From NCBI GenBank assembly GCA_964505155.1, contig CAZDGL010000001.1, positions 1,286-65,285 of the forward strand: DNA of 64,000 nt, read 5' to 3'. Under the pieces are notes generated by a model. The model was not told the origin of the DNA. It did not search any database and worked only from the letters and a program-made list of their open reading frames with translations. Shown here piece after piece: positions 9,232 to 13,131 of the stretch. The translations under genes and the position numbers were made by a program. This DNA comes from an uncultured Candidatus Saccharibacteria bacterium (GTDB lineage Bacteria; Patescibacteriota; Minisyncoccia; Phycocordibacterales; UBA9973). Each line of letters opens with the position of its first letter. Within the stretch, counting starts at the first letter, position 1.

Positions 9232-9305
9232 TGGTACCCAGTGAGGGAATCGAACCCCCGATGTCGCGGTGTAAACGCGATGCTTTCCCATTTAGCTAAC
9301 CGGGC
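9232..9305 (-). tRNA. tRNA-Val (anticodon UAC)
   Basis: Acceptor GCCCGGT/ACTGGGT (two G.U), anticodon stem TCGCG/CGCGA, loop TTTACAC, T-arm GGGGG-TTCGATT-CCCTC, CCA encoded. Confidence 0.65.
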
Positions 9306-9444: not shown

Positions 9445-10080
9445 TCATCCCTTTCGGAACGAAACCCCTAACTTTCGACCTTTATACCATCCTTCTGGTA
9501 TCTGGTCAAGCTTTTTTATCTTACGATTCTCTGTTCCATTAGTGATCCACATAGATCCGAACTGAGAATTTTTCTCACCTTGTTGGTGAAGGGAATTAGC
9601 TTCACCTATTTTACGCTTATGATCATCTGAAAGATGTGACCCTGTAGAATCATATCCTAAATTTTTTTTAGCCCTATCAGCTAAAGCTTGTCTATGTGCA
9701 GAATTTGATTGTACTTTTAGTTTTGTGGCAATAATACTCTTGGCACGTTCTTCTTCAGTAAATCCAAATCTACGAGGTGTTAAATTATTTTGGTTGATAT
9801 ACCCAAATCCACCTTTACCACCGGGACAAATATTATAAGTGTTTGATAAATTACAAAAATCTTCAGTTACCAATTCAGCTTCCTTAGAGATCATATCGGC
9901 TTCATTATCGAATTGGTAGAGAATCTCTCGCTGGAAGTTCTCAATACCATATTTTTTAATAGCACGTCTGATCTGATTCCCAGACCCTAAGTACCTATCA
10001 TTCAGATCAGAAGTCTGATGCTTACCACGATAGATTTTACCATTAATCAGGTTTGTAGTCTGGTAGACGATATAATGCAT
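9445..10080 (-). CDS. GIY-YIG homing endonuclease (Seg-like), paralog family member
   Basis: MHYIVYQTTNLINGKIYRGKHQT...YLGSG motif; 211 aa; about 70% identical at the N-terminus to 39404..40060 and 6718..6951. Confidence 0.8.
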   Translation of the reverse strand: MHYIVYQTTNLINGKIYRGKHQTSDLNDRYLGSGNQIRRAIKKYGIENFQREILYQFDNEADMISKEAELVTEDFCNLSNTYNICPGGKGGFGYINQNNLTPRRFGFTEEERAKSIIATKLKVQSNSAHRQALADRAKKNLGYDSTGSHLSDDHKRKIGEANSLHQQGEKNSQFGSMWITNGTENRKIKKLDQIPEGWYKGRKLGVSFRKG

Positions 10081-10132: not shown

Positions 10133-10136
10133 GAAG

Positions 10137-10208
10137 TGGACTGATGGGGGATCGAACCCCAACTACCGCATTGCAAGTGCAGTGTGCTCCCATTATCACT
10201 ATCAGCCC
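10137..10208 (-). tRNA. tRNA-Ala (anticodon UGC)
   Basis: Acceptor GGGCTGA/TCAGTCC (G3.U70), anticodon stem CTGCA/TGCGG, loop CTTGCAA, T-arm TGGGG-TTCGATC-CCCCA; CCA not encoded. Confidence 0.7.
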
Positions 10209-10223
10209 AATAACTAACGAATT

Positions 10224-10297
10224 TGGTACCTGAGCCGCGAATCGAACGCGAGTGGACGGTTCCACAGACCGTCGCTTTACCACTAAGCTACTCAGGC
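10224..10297 (-). tRNA. tRNA-His (anticodon GUG), alphaproteobacterial type (no G-1, G1:U72, A73)
   Basis: Acceptor GCCTGAG/CTCAGGT with G1.U72, discriminator A, position -1 is U; anticodon stem ACGGT/ACCGT, loop CTGTGGA; T-arm TCGCG-TTCGATT-CGCGG; CCA encoded. Confidence 0.7.
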
Positions 10298-10327: not shown

Positions 10328-10582
10328 TCACTCAGTGTCAACGGAAATCTTTTCGAGTGTGGATTTTCTTTTCACTTTGAAGAGTGGGGTAAGTTTGTAG
10401 ACGTAAACCTCATCCTCTTCAAGAAAATCGTCAAGATCGATATTGACGGGATCCTTCACGTCAAAAACGTACATATCCATATTTGATCCATCAGATCCAT
10501 CCAGATCAACCAGAGGATCGATGCCGGTCATTACCACATAGAAATCCTTGATTGAAGGACTTGGTTTCTTCTTAGCTGCCAT
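10328..10582 (-). CDS. hypothetical acidic protein
   Basis: Internal start MAAKKKPSPS with an AAGGA SD; the track's upstream start would lie inside the terminator hairpin. Confidence 0.4.
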   Translation of the reverse strand: MAAKKKPSPSIKDFYVVMTGIDPLVDLDGSDGSNMDMYVFDVKDPVNIDLDDFLEEDEVYVYKLTPLFKVKRKSTLEKISVDTE

Positions 10583-10593
10583 TTCTTTTTCCT

Positions 10594-10625
10594 TTGAAAA
10601 ATGGAGGAGCATTGTCTGCTCCTCC
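10594..10625 (-). terminator. rho-independent terminator (minus strand)
   Basis: GGAGGAGCA-gacaa-TGCTCCTCC followed by ATTTTTC, directly after the SPFH gene stop. Confidence 0.6.
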
Positions 10626-10642
10626 ATGTTTATAGTTTTATC

Positions 10643-11533
10643 TCACTGAGGAGTAGGTGTCAGATTCAGAAATGGTACTGCTGAACCCGGAATCATTTGT
10701 GCAGGAAGCTTTCCGTCCCACCGCTCAGCTTGCGTGAGTCGGATTAGATCCGGACTCTGCTTGAGAGCATCACCCTTGGCACGAATAGCATCAGCGTCTG
10801 CTTCACCTCGGATCCGAACAGCTTCTGCTGAGGCTTTGGCTTCAGCTAGTTGTGAGTCAGCACGTGCGTTTGCTTGCGTCACGGCAATCTCAGCATTGAT
10901 CTTTTCACGTTCGGCATTCTGACGGATCTTCTGAACTTCAACCTCGGCCATCATTCGGGCTTCGATAGACTGCTCATACTCGTCAGAAAAGTCGATATTC
11001 TCAATCTGAACCGAGATAATACTAACTGGACCTTCAACTGCAGCAATGATTGCTTGTTCAATATCAGTATTCAACTTAGCTCGATCCTGAACAATCGTTA
11101 CCGCATTATATCGACCGAACACGTTCTTGGTCTCTTCGTAAACCTTTGGATCAACCAAACGAAGGATCATATTGGATTCAGACCCATACTGTCGATAAAC
11201 CTCGTCTACAAAATCCGGTGCGATAACATAGTTCAATGAAAGTCGGACAGTTGCAGTCTGCTGGTCCTTAGAATATGCTGCAAGTCCACCAGTATACGTT
11301 CCGTCAGAATTCTGTGTTGCGTATGTTCGCACATTATCCCGAACCGAGATATCAACCACGTCATCTAGGAATGGAAGCTTGAATCCCAACCCCGGATTTG
11401 CTACACCCTGAAAAGCACCATTTCGAAGAATAACACCTCGATCACCCTCGTTTACTGTATAGAAACTTCCAAAAAACGTTGAAAGTCCTACGAGAGCAAC
11501 AATAAGAGCTAGTACACCTATTACATATTTCAC
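10643..11533 (-). CDS. SPFH / band-7 (HflK/C, prohibitin-like) membrane protein
   Basis: N-terminal TM then YTVNEGDRGVILRNGAFQGVANPGLGFKLPF...VRDNVRTYATQ (SPFH core) and an Ala/Glu-rich coiled-coil C-terminus; GTG start overlaps the upstream micro-ORF stop. Confidence 0.75.
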   Translation of the reverse strand: MKYVIGVLALIVALVGLSTFFGSFYTVNEGDRGVILRNGAFQGVANPGLGFKLPFLDDVVDISVRDNVRTYATQNSDGTYTGGLAAYSKDQQTATVRLSLNYVIAPDFVDEVYRQYGSESNMILRLVDPKVYEETKNVFGRYNAVTIVQDRAKLNTDIEQAIIAAVEGPVSIISVQIENIDFSDEYEQSIEARMMAEVEVQKIRQNAEREKINAEIAVTQANARADSQLAEAKASAEAVRIRGEADADAIRAKGDALKQSPDLIRLTQAERWDGKLPAQMIPGSAVPFLNLTPTPQ

Positions 11534-11646
11534 TTAGTTTCTCCTTTAGAAGTCTTGAAACGAATATTATCAATACACCACCATATTCCCATCCACAAGA
11601 CGAATGCGATTACGATGATGCCTACTGCTAGAAATAGCTTAGTCAT
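11530..11646 (-). CDS. small membrane protein (38 aa), translationally coupled
   Basis: MTKLFLAVGIIVIAFVLWMGIWWCIDNIRFKTSKGETK; ATGA and GTGA overlaps with the neighbouring genes. Confidence 0.3.
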   Translation of the reverse strand: MTKLFLAVGIIVIAFVLWMGIWWCIDNIRFKTSKGETK

Positions 11647-11725
11647 CTTTTGCGTCCCTTCCACACTGAAGAATAATCCAAATCATTGTTCCAATCAAAG
11701 CCACTGAGGCAAGAAAATAAAGCAT
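11639..11725 (-). CDS. small membrane protein (28 aa), translationally coupled
   Basis: MLYFLASVALIGTMIWIILQCGRDAKDD; its start overlaps the phosphatase stop (TAATG). Confidence 0.3.
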   Translation of the reverse strand: MLYFLASVALIGTMIWIILQCGRDAKDD

Positions 11726-12444
11726 TATGCCATCCACTCCGCATTTGTTTTAAATTTATCCATGAAGTTAAACTTCGAATCAATCTGTACAGTATTGTAC
11801 ATCATCAACTCAAACTCTTCATCTATCACAAGTGCGGACAATAGTCCACCGAAAACGCATGACGTATCGAGATTGATACGATTCTTTCTCCATGTGATAT
11901 CATCCTGTGGAGTATGTCCATGAACAACCTTTTTATCAAATGGATGAGTGTAGTCTAAAAACTTATCGCGGATCCAAAGTGAATCATTCCAGTTCTGGTC
12001 ATTCAGGGAATACGAAGGATTGACTCCAGCATGAACGAAGAAGTGCTTTCTGGTTTCATAATACTGACGAGTATTAGTCAGAAACTTCCAATGTCCTGCA
12101 GGAAGATAATCATACCCTATTGTGGTATAATCAAACCCATAAGACTTGTAGCACTCGGGATAATACTGATAATGACCAATAGATCCTTCGCGCATGGCTT
12201 CCATAAACATATCTTCGTGATTACCACGTAGGAAAACGCATTCTTGACGCATACCATACGCAATAAGTTTATCGATCACTCCCTTGGAATCAGGACCACG
12301 ATCAATGTAATCACCCAAAAAGATGCGGACGTGTTCTGGAAATTGCTTATCCAGAGCATCCAGCATTTCGTTCAGTTCGTTCAGACATCCGTGAATGTCT
12401 CCGATAGCGATATATTTACTCACTAGATTTCTCCGCACATGCAA
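11725..12444 (-). CDS. Ser/Thr protein phosphatase, PPP / metallophosphoesterase family (lambda-PPase-like)
   Basis: GDIHGC, GDYIDRGPDS and GNHE motifs in order. Confidence 0.85.
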   Translation of the reverse strand: MHVRRNLVSKYIAIGDIHGCLNELNEMLDALDKQFPEHVRIFLGDYIDRGPDSKGVIDKLIAYGMRQECVFLRGNHEDMFMEAMREGSIGHYQYYPECYKSYGFDYTTIGYDYLPAGHWKFLTNTRQYYETRKHFFVHAGVNPSYSLNDQNWNDSLWIRDKFLDYTHPFDKKVVHGHTPQDDITWRKNRINLDTSCVFGGLLSALVIDEEFELMMYNTVQIDSKFNFMDKFKTNAEWMA

Positions 12445-12486
12445 AAATATTAAAAAGATAAATAGCTCTATAAGGAGCTATCAAAA

Positions 12487-13131
12487 ATGTACTGTACATA
12501 TCTTACCATTTATTCAGGAAACTTATTGCCACCATTTTATATCGGGTATACTTCTATTTCAAGAATAGAATCTGGGTATAACGGAACAGTAACTTCACAA
12601 CGTTACGGAACAATATGGAAATCAGAACGAAAAGTCAATAAACATCTGTTCAAAACCATCATATTAAAACAATTCCATAACAGAAAAGAAGCATTATTAG
12701 CAGAATGTCAATTACATGAAAAATTAAAAGTTGATAAAAATCCTTTATATATCAACCAATCTTGTCAAAAATCAGACGGATTTACTTGTATAGGACACTC
12801 AAAGGAATCACGTAAAAGAATGTCAGAAACCAGAAAAGGTCGTAAAGGTCCAAATCTCGGTCGAGTATTAACTGAAGAATGGAAAGAAAATATCTCCAAA
12901 GGAAATAAAGGAAAACCAAAATCTGAAACTACAAAGAAAAAAATGTCGGAATCATTTAAAACTAGAAGATGGTGGACTAACGGTATTATTGATAAATTTA
13001 CGTCAGAATACCTCGGTGAAGGATGGAGACGTGGCATGAGAAAAAATCCTAATAGAAAAGGATTTCTTCCCGGTAATCAATATCGATTCAATCCAAAAAA
13101 CCATGATATTCCTGCCAAGCATGATAACTGA
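12487..13131 (+). CDS. GIY-YIG homing endonuclease (Seg-like) with NUMOD3 repeats
   Basis: YCTYLTIYSGNLLPPFYIGYT...; repeats SKESRKRMSETRKGRKG / TEEWKENISKGNKGK; preceded by GATAAATAG plus an SD-containing hairpin. Confidence 0.7.
   Translation: MYCTYLTIYSGNLLPPFYIGYTSISRIESGYNGTVTSQRYGTIWKSERKVNKHLFKTIILKQFHNRKEALLAECQLHEKLKVDKNPLYINQSCQKSDGFTCIGHSKESRKRMSETRKGRKGPNLGRVLTEEWKENISKGNKGKPKSETTKKKMSESFKTRRWWTNGIIDKFTSEYLGEGWRRGMRKNPNRKGFLPGNQYRFNPKNHDIPAKHDN

Follow-up and report, generated by a model that had tools for sequence, protein, structure and literature searches.

An unannotated membrane micro-protein gene precedes prohibitin/HflK-C-like SPFH genes in many unrelated phages as part of a mobile two-gene cassette

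SPFH proteins are known from several described membrane systems. In the SPFH-NfeD operons (stomatin/PH1511-PH1510, QmcA-YbbJ, YqiK-YqiJ, YuaG-YuaF), the SPFH gene adjoins a gene for a small membrane protein, and NfeD proteins are known to partner the stomatin and flotillin branches and not the prohibitin/HflKC branch. For SPFH4, the prohibitin group that includes mitochondrial PHB1/2, the accessible portion of Hinderhofer et al. 2009 lists no studied bacterial member and names no operon partner. SPFH was noted in 2006 among the new accessory ORFs found in T4-like phages, and genes of this domain family are annotated in T4-like 44RR, Aeh1 and RB43, in N4 (gp20), in GAP32, Pasto, Skarpretter and others. 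Some published phage accounts call the function of SPFH unclear and mention no partner, and a 2026 phage paper tentatively proposed a part in adsorption or DNA entry, calling the reason for its presence unclear. SPFH genes are nonetheless common in phages: a search with the SPFH protein studied here found the same domain family in 389 of the 50,697 deposited phage genome records.

The locus examined here lies in a 64,000-nucleotide window (the whole stretch of DNA analyzed) and is an accessory, non-core operon of a distant T4-like phage, set in a region rich in tRNA and homing-endonuclease genes. The operon's placement outside the T4 core, as claimed in a preliminary description of this DNA, agrees with the 2006 listing of SPFH among the accessory ORFs of some T4-like phages. 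The phage is otherwise known only from NCBI contig P0001 (151 kb) and two Logan contigs, and neither the operon nor a 25-kb part of the window gave a megablast match among deposited phages. On the minus strand, four overlapping ORFs encode a phosphatase (PPase), two micro-proteins (m28 and m38) and an SPFH protein, and are followed by a hairpin terminator (Table 1). The preliminary description had the TAATG junction between PPase and m28 and the 4-nt GTGA overlap between m38 and SPFH right, whereas the ATGA it gave for m28 and m38 is in fact an 8-nt overlap (ATGACTAA; m28 TAA at 11641..11639, m38 ATG at 11646..11644). Every ORF overlaps the next, and the translational coupling proposed for the four genes is upheld. 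Their extent also stands, except for a PPase start that had been placed at 12444, a TTG; the GTG in Table 1 is the better choice and agrees with the ATG start (MSKY...) in L017, a collinear relative.

Table 1. Features of the operon (positions within the window)
Feature	Description	Coordinates	Strand	Signals and details
PPase	PPP-family (lambda-PPase/Pnkp/ApaH-like) dinuclear metallophosphatase, 232 aa	11725..12423	-	GTG start; GGAG (12434-12431) 7 nt upstream
m28	28-aa hydrophobic micro-ORF (MLYFLASVALIGTMIWIILQCGRDAKDD)	11639..11725	-	ATG on PPase stop; TAA 8 nt inside m38
m38	38-aa single-pass membrane protein (MTKLFLAVGIIVIAFVLWMGIWWCIDNIRFKTSKGETK)	11530..11646	-	Shine-Dalgarno GGAAGGGA at 11662-11655
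SPFH	SPFH/Band-7 protein, prohibitin/HflK-C type, 296 aa	10643..11533	-	GTG start; Shine-Dalgarno AAGGAG (11546-11541) 7 nt upstream
Terminator	Intrinsic terminator	10596..10627	-	11-bp GC-rich stem, 5-nt loop (10627..10601), then T-run

The intrinsic terminator described directly after the SPFH gene is a stable hairpin with a T-run (dG -19.9 kcal/mol, z = -5.2; 0 of 200 shuffles fold equally well), and L017 has a hairpin of different stem sequence at the equivalent position (dG -19.8). The stem is near-palindromic, and the scanner scored the plus strand too. The T4 late-promoter motif TATAAATA was absent near the operon and showed no enrichment in the window, while a scan for sigma-70-like promoters gave no more sites than shuffled sequence and no recognizable operon promoter. 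Compared with L017, the block from PPase to SPFH has a dS of about 0.3 (0.06 for m28), and the gene on either side has a dS above 1. The limits of the raised similarity match those of the operon, and the four genes behave as a single unit in the lineage of the window phage. In a second collinear relative, L018, PPase, a micro-ORF and SPFH occur in identical order with 56-62% protein identity.

The gene families in this operon are ordinary; the new element is the unannotated family to which m38 belongs, encoded upstream of SPFH in many unrelated phages. A micro-protein HMM built without m38 (significance at E<=1e-3) matched m38 at E=9.8e-9 (34.6 bits), and this was the sole match in the window among 14,846 small ORFs searched. 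The other 51 matches, which span T4-, N4- and T7-like phages as well as prophages, all have an SPFH gene immediately downstream on the same strand (51/51). Two glycines, G9 and G20, are invariant in the family and present in m38, and the dN/dS of m38 against L017 is 0.13, a value based on small numbers (5 synonymous, 3 nonsynonymous changes) with which the family-wide conservation agrees. No other small ORF in the window, out of 638, is as hydrophobic as m38, and lysine and arginine residues flanking the TM segment (0 on the N side, 3.5 on the C side, in 120 of 120 family members) predict an N-out/C-in topology. Although the family forms 183 clusters in a database of 5.8 billion proteins, none carries a Pfam domain or a meaningful name; it has no match in Pfam or PHROGs, m38 itself has none in NCBIfam or PADLOC, and m38-type genes are unannotated in the GenBank records of Agrobacterium phage OLIVR1 and Mesorhizobium phage Cp1R7A-A1 and in the Logan calls for L017. 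Judged on these sequence comparisons, m38 is a real gene and a member of an unannotated micro-protein family encoded just upstream of SPFH genes. The micro-peptides were also considered as holins or lysis proteins, a reading set aside on the grounds of no family match, one short TM segment, and the position of the cassette in early or replication regions elsewhere.

Among loci with enough upstream sequence, an m38-type partner was found at 42 of 87 viral or metagenomic SPFH loci and at 8 of 80 in bacterial genomes; both of the two examined among these eight are prophages. Partners also occur in the cultured phages OLIVR1 (N4-like) and Cp1R7A-A1. In dozens of unrelated phages and prophages, the micro-protein and SPFH genes adjoin on the same strand, usually abutting or overlapping, and in the window phage the pair is under purifying selection (dN/dS for SPFH 0.05 against L017) and each of the two genes has a strong Shine-Dalgarno site. 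The conserved core is a mobile two-gene cassette, a gene for a single-pass membrane protein of about 35 aa followed by a prohibitin/HflK-C-like SPFH gene. In T7-like, N4-like and other phages, homologs are located in early or replication regions. No m38-type partner is detectable at roughly half of the phage loci that carry this SPFH subfamily, so that either the partner is not obligatory or other small TM proteins take its place.

The SPFH protein was correctly identified in the preliminary description as HflK/C-prohibitin-like, as matches in Pfam, PDB sequences and Foldseek agree. The Band_7 search proposed there (PF01145) covered residues 26-210 at E=1.6e-31 (110.2 bits, cut-off 23.6), and the protein falls in phrog_200 (1.8e-55). 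Among PDB sequences it matched prohibitin (1.5e-9), HflC (6e-9) and HflK, and its AF2 model (pLDDT 82; helix 2-21, SPFH domain 23-182, helix 184-259) matched HflC (1.5e-15), HflK (7.7e-15), PHB1/2, erlin, stomatin and QmcA in Foldseek. The layout comprises an N-terminal TM anchor (about 3-22), the SPFH domain, a helix of about 75 residues and a conserved C-terminal tail, with a predicted cytoplasmic N-terminus and periplasmic body. Although the monomer model gives the last 30 residues a low pLDDT, they hold six invariant residues (W272, G274, L276, P277, P282, P287), on which account the tail resembles a segment that would fold only in an oligomer. Bacterial homologs (52-60% identity), nearly all from Rhizobiales, carry the NCBI name 'prohibitin family protein'.

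Based on these features, we propose that the cassette builds an HflK/C-like, periplasm-facing cage in the host inner membrane, a model to which we give even odds as a whole. Inserted in the manner of HflK/C, the SPFH protein would keep its N-terminus on the cytoplasmic side and expose its body to the periplasm, and would oligomerize through the long helix and the conserved tail into a ring or cage; this architecture follows from the full-length SPFH likeness to the cages of HflK/C, prohibitin, erlin, stomatin and QmcA. As an intramembrane subunit in N-out/C-in orientation, m38 would pack its glycine face (G9, G20) on the ring of SPFH anchor helices. The cage would probably form early in infection, since homologs lie in early or replication regions of other phages, an expected timing taken from gene neighborhoods, and would fence off or modulate some component of the host inner membrane. 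The first candidate target would be FtsH-type membrane-protein quality control, although FtsH is a guess drawn solely from homology to HflK/C and prohibitin. Interaction, oligomer, topology and target are all inferred, going beyond the gene adjacency. Counting against FtsH are the missed equivalog cut-offs in NCBIfam (hflC 55.6 bits against 134.4; hflK 47.5 against 159.4) and the presence of one SPFH gene in place of an HflK/HflC pair, tblastn of the SPFH protein finding only itself in the window. In a stronger and doubtful form, the m38 family would be an unrecognized obligate intramembrane subunit of phage prohibitin-like cages, a minimal functional replacement for NfeD, spread horizontally with SPFH as a cassette through prophages and phages of the T4-, T7- and N4-like types. 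It would set up an early host-inner-membrane compartment that captures or shields a specific host or phage membrane protein, with PPase and a further micro-peptide recruited into the coupled unit in the lineage studied here.

The same predicted periplasmic SPFH body, and a location that in several phage types is amid genes of the early or host-takeover kind, would also suit a pair that acts at the envelope with no control of proteolysis, whether in superinfection exclusion, in stabilizing the membrane after injection, or as a virion-borne or ejected component. The homolog in Pectobacterium phage CBB is labeled 'structural protein', which would favor a virion or entry role over the cage, and the adsorption or DNA-entry suggestion of the 2026 paper points the same way. 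However, the pair does not resemble known exclusion proteins, PADLOC returned no match for any of the four operon proteins, and the sequence features fit the cage and FtsH equally well; we regard an envelope role as rather unlikely. As PADLOC was equally negative for the 84-aa protein encoded downstream, a defense-system reading is also without support.

The status of m28 is less firm than that of m38. Its frame is intact in L017 (88% nucleotide identity, three conservative substitutions), but the dN/dS of 1.1 (1 synonymous, 4 nonsynonymous changes) gives no sign of purifying selection and there is no third-position excess, the Shine-Dalgarno sequence is weak or poorly spaced and in L017 no better, and L018 has only a 24-nt spacer with no equivalent ORF. 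Searches of Pfam, PHROGs, NCBIfam and PADLOC found no family match, and no homolog was found other than in L017. The 87 nt between PPase and m38 could accordingly be a spacer that is open by chance, with three proteins made, a reading that we hold to be a serious minority case. Against it, the frame tiles the gap exactly, from the PPase stop to inside m38; the chance that a frame opening with ATG stays open for 28 codons in that fixed register is about 0.004; all of the 5 substitutions that separate it from L017 are conservative hydrophobic changes; and it ranks 12th in hydrophobicity among the 638 small ORFs (top 2%). Tandem extra micro-TM ORFs beside the cassette also recur in four other loci (L006, L039, L045, L129), and there is no RNA structure to account for the nucleotide conservation. 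An RNA element in this region was rejected, as folding gave z=+0.3 and Rfam found only tRNAs. Eleven loci have a member of another small-TM family, fam2 (MNLGIAMIVAYIPLF.W...), next to SPFH, and m28 showed no significant likeness to it (E=5.5). With one close relative, a dN/dS of about 1 and its absence from L018, m28 is only a candidate gene, which may encode a lineage-specific second micro-membrane protein. On conservation of the micro-ORFs in relatives, raised as a check in the preliminary description, m38 is thus strongly conserved (51 other matches, dN/dS 0.13), and m28 is found in L017 only.

The phosphatase was likewise recognized from the outset as a PPP-family, lambda-PPase-like enzyme, an assignment that holds. 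The proposed metallophosphatase search (PF00149) exceeded the Pfam cut-off (E=1.2e-19, 72 bits against 21.5), PHROGs placed PPase with the NinI-like phrog_246 (3.4e-47), and all catalytic motifs (GDIHG, GDYIDRG, GNHE and HGH; H131, G169-H170) are present and invariant in the alignment. The AF2 model (pLDDT 94) matched the phosphatase of C. thermocellum Pnkp (CthPnkp; 1.4e-12, TM 0.72-0.74) and lambda PP (2.4e-11) in Foldseek, being equally close in fold to Pnkp, Ap4A hydrolase and lambda PP. With lambda phosphatase (NinI/ORF221; of similar size at 221 aa) and the CthPnkp domain, PPase shares the dinuclear PPP metallophosphatase type, the full set of signature motifs and a similar fold (TM 0.67-0.74), but it is only about 20% identical to either. 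It is conserved against L017 (dN/dS 0.15) and is taken to be cytoplasmic, as inspection by eye showed no TM segment or signal peptide. An IMG/VR scan yielded no confirmed relative of PPase; its closest cultured-phage homologs, in the Sinorhizobium T4-type phages phiM12, phiM19 and phiN3, are about 40% identical, and the next-closest homologs (47% and 43% identity) have Metallophos_2, Macro and AAA genes as neighbors and no SPFH gene in the vicinity.

Putative substrates of PPase include phospho-Ser/Thr/Tyr protein, 2',3'-cyclic phosphate RNA ends and Ap4A-type nucleotides. The CthPnkp phosphatase domain and a putative Ap4A hydrolase outrank lambda PPase in both sequence and fold, the top partial matches in NCBIfam are bacterial Pnkp and ApaH, the gene sits amid tRNA genes, and homologs adjoin Macro and NAMPT/NUDIX genes. 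Lambda phosphatase itself has 2',3'-cyclic phosphodiesterase activity, as reported in PMC2190708. On these grounds PPase might not be a protein Ser/Thr phosphatase but an enzyme of RNA-end healing (2',3'-cyclic phosphodiesterase/3'-phosphatase) or of nucleotide signaling (Ap4A-type hydrolase), and would then be unconnected with the membrane proteins. We think this less likely than not, as the Pnkp and ApaH models, which score as high as PrpA (50 bits, cut-off 326) and PrpB (31 bits, cut-off 332) or higher, are like them all far below their equivalog cut-offs, there is no attached or adjacent kinase or ligase domain, PHROGs groups the protein with NinI-like phosphatases, and substrate in this superfamily is not assignable from sequence alone.

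A tie between the phosphatase and the SPFH protein as one functional module, in which PPase would target the membrane platform or be drawn to it and remodel host membrane signaling or FtsH control, could be read from the coupling of all four genes, the low dS of the block against L017, the gene order kept in L018, and the predicted cytoplasmic tail of the micro-protein, which shares a compartment with PPase. In L042, an unrelated high-GC bacterial contig, a PPP phosphatase also lies about 130 nt upstream of the SPFH gene. This was, however, one of just three cases among 178 related loci (flanks of up to 3-6 kb per side), and the other two, L017 and L018, are not independent observations since they are collinear with the window phage; one bacterial case in about 175 loci is near chance (rough estimate about 0.1). 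Compartments also disagree, the SPFH body being predicted as periplasmic and PPase as cytoplasmic; the 47% and 43% homologs of PPase lack a nearby SPFH gene; and in L017 a TGATG overlap likewise couples the R2K ATP-grasp gene upstream, such overlaps being ordinary phage packing here. The SPFH-phosphatase module originally proposed is not general, and a functional tie in the window phage appears improbable. Action on FtsH or remodeling of membrane microdomains, also suggested in the preliminary description, is conjecture. The link has more the look of co-expression than of a conserved module: PPase would be a cytoplasmic PPP enzyme co-transcribed and translationally coupled with the cassette only in this lineage. 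We see no basis for building further on it before experiments. The micro-protein beside SPFH, by comparison, offers a concrete handle, as it predicts a two-component membrane complex and forms a simple genetic pair, and with its absence from the annotation of OLIVR1, Cp1R7A-A1 and L017, the case illustrates how real genes of 35-40 aa escape annotation.

Compared with known systems, the phage SPFH protein shares with HflK/HflC of E. coli the N-terminal TM anchor, SPFH domain, long helix and C-terminal cap segment, as well as the predicted orientation (N-in, periplasmic body); HflC is its best full-length fold match in the PDB. Unlike the heteromeric HflK/HflC, it is encoded by a single SPFH gene and scores well under both equivalog cut-offs, and it has a micro-protein partner, which HflK/C does not. 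The annotated phage SPFH proteins belong to the same domain family, and all are less than 60% identical to the protein in the window. With the SPFH-NfeD operons, the cassette shares an SPFH gene adjoining a small-membrane-protein gene, and the fold also matches QmcA of the QmcA-YbbJ complex (E=1.3e-10). NfeD, however, has a soluble C-terminal OB-fold domain, for which m28 and m38 have no room at 28 and 38 aa, and Pfam did not find NfeD in either of them or in longer family members; the micro-peptides are thus not NfeD-like. The expectation of an NfeD pairing falls as well, since the phage SPFH protein belongs to the prohibitin/HflKC branch, which is not the one known to partner NfeD. The best sequence match in the PDB is to prohibitin, and what sets the phage protein apart from SPFH4, as that group is described in the accessible portion of the 2009 account, is its conserved micro-protein partner and the phage- or prophage-borne nature of the partner-bearing copies examined.

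The phage from which the window comes is T4-like but distant: its gp43 DNA polymerase shares 42% identity with cyanomyovirus counterparts, 12 tRNA genes are present in the window, and a nucleotide-level search of deposited phages with the operon and 25 kb of the window gave no match. The array of four coupled genes and a terminator reported in the preliminary description was borne out, with two corrections. The four ORFs tile the minus strand from 12423 to 10596 without gaps (Table). The phosphatase start had been placed at 12444, an upstream TTG not backed by the gene of the relative L017, which begins with MSKY at the equivalent ATG. The two micro-ORFs of 28 and 38 aa (m28 and m38) do not meet as ATGA but overlap by 8 nt (ATGACTAA); the TAATG and GTGA overlaps described on either side of them are both present.

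Table. Features of the operon and other features of the window.
Feature	Position	Strand	Remarks
Metallophosphatase, 232 aa	12423 to 11725	-	GTG start, GGAG 7 nt upstream
m28, 28 aa	11725 to 11639	-	ATG overlaps phosphatase stop as TAATG
m38, 38 aa	11646 to 11530	-	Good SD GGAAGGGA 8 nt upstream
SPFH protein, 296 aa	11533 to 10643	-	GTG start, AAGGAG 7 nt upstream; overlaps m38 stop as GTGA
Terminator	10627..10601	-	11-bp hairpin then T-run; dG -19.9 kcal/mol, z -5.2; end of operon
84-aa protein	10328-10582	-	Strongly acidic, directly after terminator; no family match
GIY-YIG/NUMOD3 homing endonuclease	12487..13131	+	Antisense overlap of 44 nt with the 3' end of R2K
Endonuclease SD hairpin, 8 bp	12461..12482		SD (AAGGAG) half buried; dG -9.3, z -4.0
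GIY-YIG (SegE-like) homing endonuclease	9445-10080	-	Between tRNA genes just downstream of operon
tRNA genes flanking SegE-like gene	9232-9305, 10136-10208, 10224-10297		
Micro-ORF, 27 aa	21217-21300	-	Very hydrophobic; main coding strand
Micro-ORF, 43 aa	24368-24499	-	Very hydrophobic; main coding strand

We gathered 178 loci of this SPFH subfamily: 80 each from metagenomes and bacterial genomes, 16 from IMG/VR and 2 from Logan. Many have a small single-TM ORF just 5' of the SPFH gene; these ORFs are mutually alignable, and m38 belongs to the conserved micro-protein family that they form, with the consensus M..ALIG..VV......G.YWL..N[VI].[FIL]K. Its two invariant glycines are 11 residues apart, a spacing that would set them on one helix face, and longer members have an extra acidic YxYxxDxxGN tail. 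When the window sequence was left out of the profile, m38 was still matched at E=9.8e-9, the sole match in the 64-kb window in a search of 14,846 small ORFs, and all 51 of the other matches at E<=1e-3 lie on the SPFH strand, directly 5' of the SPFH gene. Among 87 viral or metagenomic loci whose upstream sequence is long enough, 42 have the partner, as do 8/80 bacterial-genome loci; the two bacterial loci inspected were both prophages, one T7-like with RNA polymerase, amidase and primase/helicase genes, the other with Sak4 and SSB. Unannotated members are present in Agrobacterium phage OLIVR1 (N4-like) and Mesorhizobium phage Cp1R7A-A1, and Rhizobium phage Pasto has a weaker TM protein at the equivalent position. 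Family members had no match in Pfam or PHROGs, nor m38 in NCBIfam or PADLOC, and none of 183 micro-protein clusters in a 5.8-billion-protein collection has a meaningful name.

The GenBank record of OLIVR1 (L187, MT234338.1; 1807-1923 and 1941-3140) omits the 38-aa partner gene (MFFKLIGVIVILVTLVVGAYWLATNIGFNKNQKTKKRK) and places the 'band 7-like protein' on the strand opposite to our tblastn match; the partner gene of Cp1R7A-A1 (L185, 1788-1943) is likewise absent from its record. A second small-TM family (consensus MNLGIAMIVAYIPLF.W...; its five seed members have 34-58 aa) accompanies the micro-protein/SPFH pair in loci L005, L007, L009, L027, L038, L045, L046, L048, L049, L050 and L064. In five of the six seed loci it closely follows SPFH; in L045 it is upstream. 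The two hydrophobic micro-ORFs elsewhere in the window (Table) are candidate unannotated small membrane proteins.

Two contigs, L017 (10 kb, from Logan; SPFH protein 97% identical) and the more distant L018 (8 kb; 62% identical), are collinear with the window across many kilobases and are therefore members of one phage lineage. Both micro-ORFs are found in L017 with lengths and overlaps unchanged, and L018 has the phosphatase, a 24-nt spacer, a 36-aa TM ORF clearly homologous to m38, and SPFH with an ATGA overlap. Between the window and L017, dN/dS of m38 (0.13) is similar to that of the phosphatase (0.15) and SPFH (0.05) genes. The proposal of two micro membrane proteins holds for m38, which is kept in both relatives and family-wide; m28 is kept in L017 only. 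There it is intact, with three conservative changes (T13V, I18V and A25V) and five substitutions, one synonymous and four nonsynonymous (dN/dS about 1.1). It has a poor Shine-Dalgarno site and no equivalent in L018, searches elsewhere found no m28-like sequence, and kinship with the second small-TM family was not detectable (E=5.5). Against dismissal count its exact filling of the phosphatase-m38 gap, a p of about 0.004 for a fixed-register ATG ORF of this length, hydrophobicity in the top 2% of small ORFs in the window, the failure to find an RNA structure accounting for its high nucleotide conservation, and the recurrence of additional micro-TM ORFs next to the cassette (m38-type gene plus SPFH gene) at other loci. 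As a gene, m28 is plausible but unproven.

The phosphatase is securely assigned at the level of the PPP family. It matched Pfam Metallophos (1.2e-19), as the preliminary description had anticipated, and PHROG 246 'NinI-like serine-threonine phosphatase' (3.4e-47), and has all PPP catalytic motifs; the closest solved folds to its confident model (pLDDT 94) are the C. thermocellum Pnkp phosphatase domain, a putative Ap4A hydrolase, lambda phosphatase and RLPH2. A lambda-PPase-like label is supported to this extent; the protein reached none of the NCBIfam equivalog cut-offs.

Within the lineage, the four genes hold together as a block: across it (10643-12423 versus L017 3480-5254), nucleotide identity is 90-94% and dS about 0.3 (0.06 for m28), versus 76% with saturated dS for the upstream R2K ATP-grasp gene, 50% for the terminator spacer, and 69% (nucleotide) with dS 1.2 for the downstream 84-aa gene. 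The block looks like a mosaic segment lately exchanged between related phages. Co-conversion is a possible cause, because the window has a homing endonuclease at the block edge; it is absent from L017 and inserted exactly at the junction at which, in L017, the stop codon of R2K and the start codon of the phosphatase gene overlap (TGATG). With this insertion, GTG took the place of the phosphatase ATG, and the hairpin at the endonuclease SD resembles the RBS-sequestering hairpins of the T4 seg and I-TevI genes. Downstream of the operon, L017 and L018 share a tRNA-His and tRNA-Ala segment with the window, and the 84-aa protein is 68% identical in L017 (dN/dS 0.23).

Overall, a PPP phosphatase is near SPFH in 3/178 loci: L017, L018 and L042. 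The phosphatase-SPFH module suggested earlier is not general: two of these three occurrences are the lineage relatives themselves. The next-closest phosphatase homologues adjoin Metallophos_2, Macro and AAA genes, not SPFH. Overlapping starts and stops are usual in this region, the L017 R2K gene being coupled likewise. Since the link vanishes outside the lineage and such overlaps are ordinary here, we read the phosphatase as co-expressed with SPFH, not as its demonstrated partner.

The sole pairing outside the phage lineage (L042, 2186-3894; a 316-kb, 71% GC bacterial contig) has a 227-aa phosphatase, 33% identical to that of the window, about 130 nt 5' of the SPFH homologue on the same strand. 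The closest non-lineage phosphatase homologues (L179 517-3557 and L180 4001-7081; 47% and 43% identity) belong to a conserved phage cluster of Metallophos, Metallophos_2, Macro, AAA ATPase, YjiS-like and glutaredoxin genes. In L180, NAMPT and NUDIX genes of NAD salvage lie a few genes upstream of the cluster, which hints at a function of this clade of phosphatases related to nucleotides or ADP-ribose. Contigs of another related group (L004 2531-3091, 195 kb; L013 2471-3070, 37 kb) encode a distinct, 186-aa DTHFGH-type metallophosphoesterase about 0.7 kb 5' of the micro-protein/SPFH pair, with two small genes between; this may be coincidence or a looser recurrent phosphoesterase association.

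The description of the 296-aa protein as HflK/C-prohibitin-like was well founded. It matched Band_7 (1.6e-31) and PHROG 200, its nearest PDB sequences are prohibitin, HflC and HflK, and its model (TM helix, SPFH domain, 75-residue helix, and a conserved tail disordered in the monomer) superposes full-length on HflC/HflK, PHB1/2, erlin, stomatin and QmcA cage subunits. Orthology to HflK or HflC was rejected on sub-cut-off scores and the presence of a single SPFH gene in the window.

Past the gene linkage, every step of the mechanism is a proposal. Positive-inside counts (K+R 0 before the helix and 3.5 after, in 120/120 members) predict an N-out/C-in micro-protein, and the basic N-flank and acidic C-flank of the SPFH helix predict an N-in protein with a periplasmic body, as Hinderhofer et al. 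(2009) report for HflK/C and suggest for prokaryotic prohibitins. Most likely, copies of the SPFH protein would assemble into a homo-oligomeric, HflK/C-like cage on the periplasmic side of the host inner membrane, with the micro-protein glycine face packing into the palisade of SPFH anchor helices. In T7-like, N4-like and other phages the cassette is located in an early or replication region, so the cage would probably be made early in infection, where it could fence off or modulate an inner-membrane target; by homology, FtsH would be the first candidate. Alternatively, the cassette may serve superinfection exclusion, membrane stabilisation, or a virion or entry role, the last in line with the annotation of a CBB homologue as 'structural protein'.

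SPFH genes of T4-like phages were already on record in 2006, 389 deposited phage genomes carry such genes, and their function was stated to be unclear as late as 2026. Operon partners of SPFH genes are also known, in the form of NfeD, and the preliminary description had named small NfeD-like proteins as the normal partners. For m28 and m38 the comparison fails: NfeD has an OB-fold domain, for which they are too small, and its known SPFH companions belong to the stomatin and flotillin branches rather than to that of prohibitin/HflKC. The other operon genes belong to ordinary families; what is new, on the strength of database misses, is the family of micro-proteins, together with how strictly it is linked to prohibitin-type SPFH genes carried by phages.
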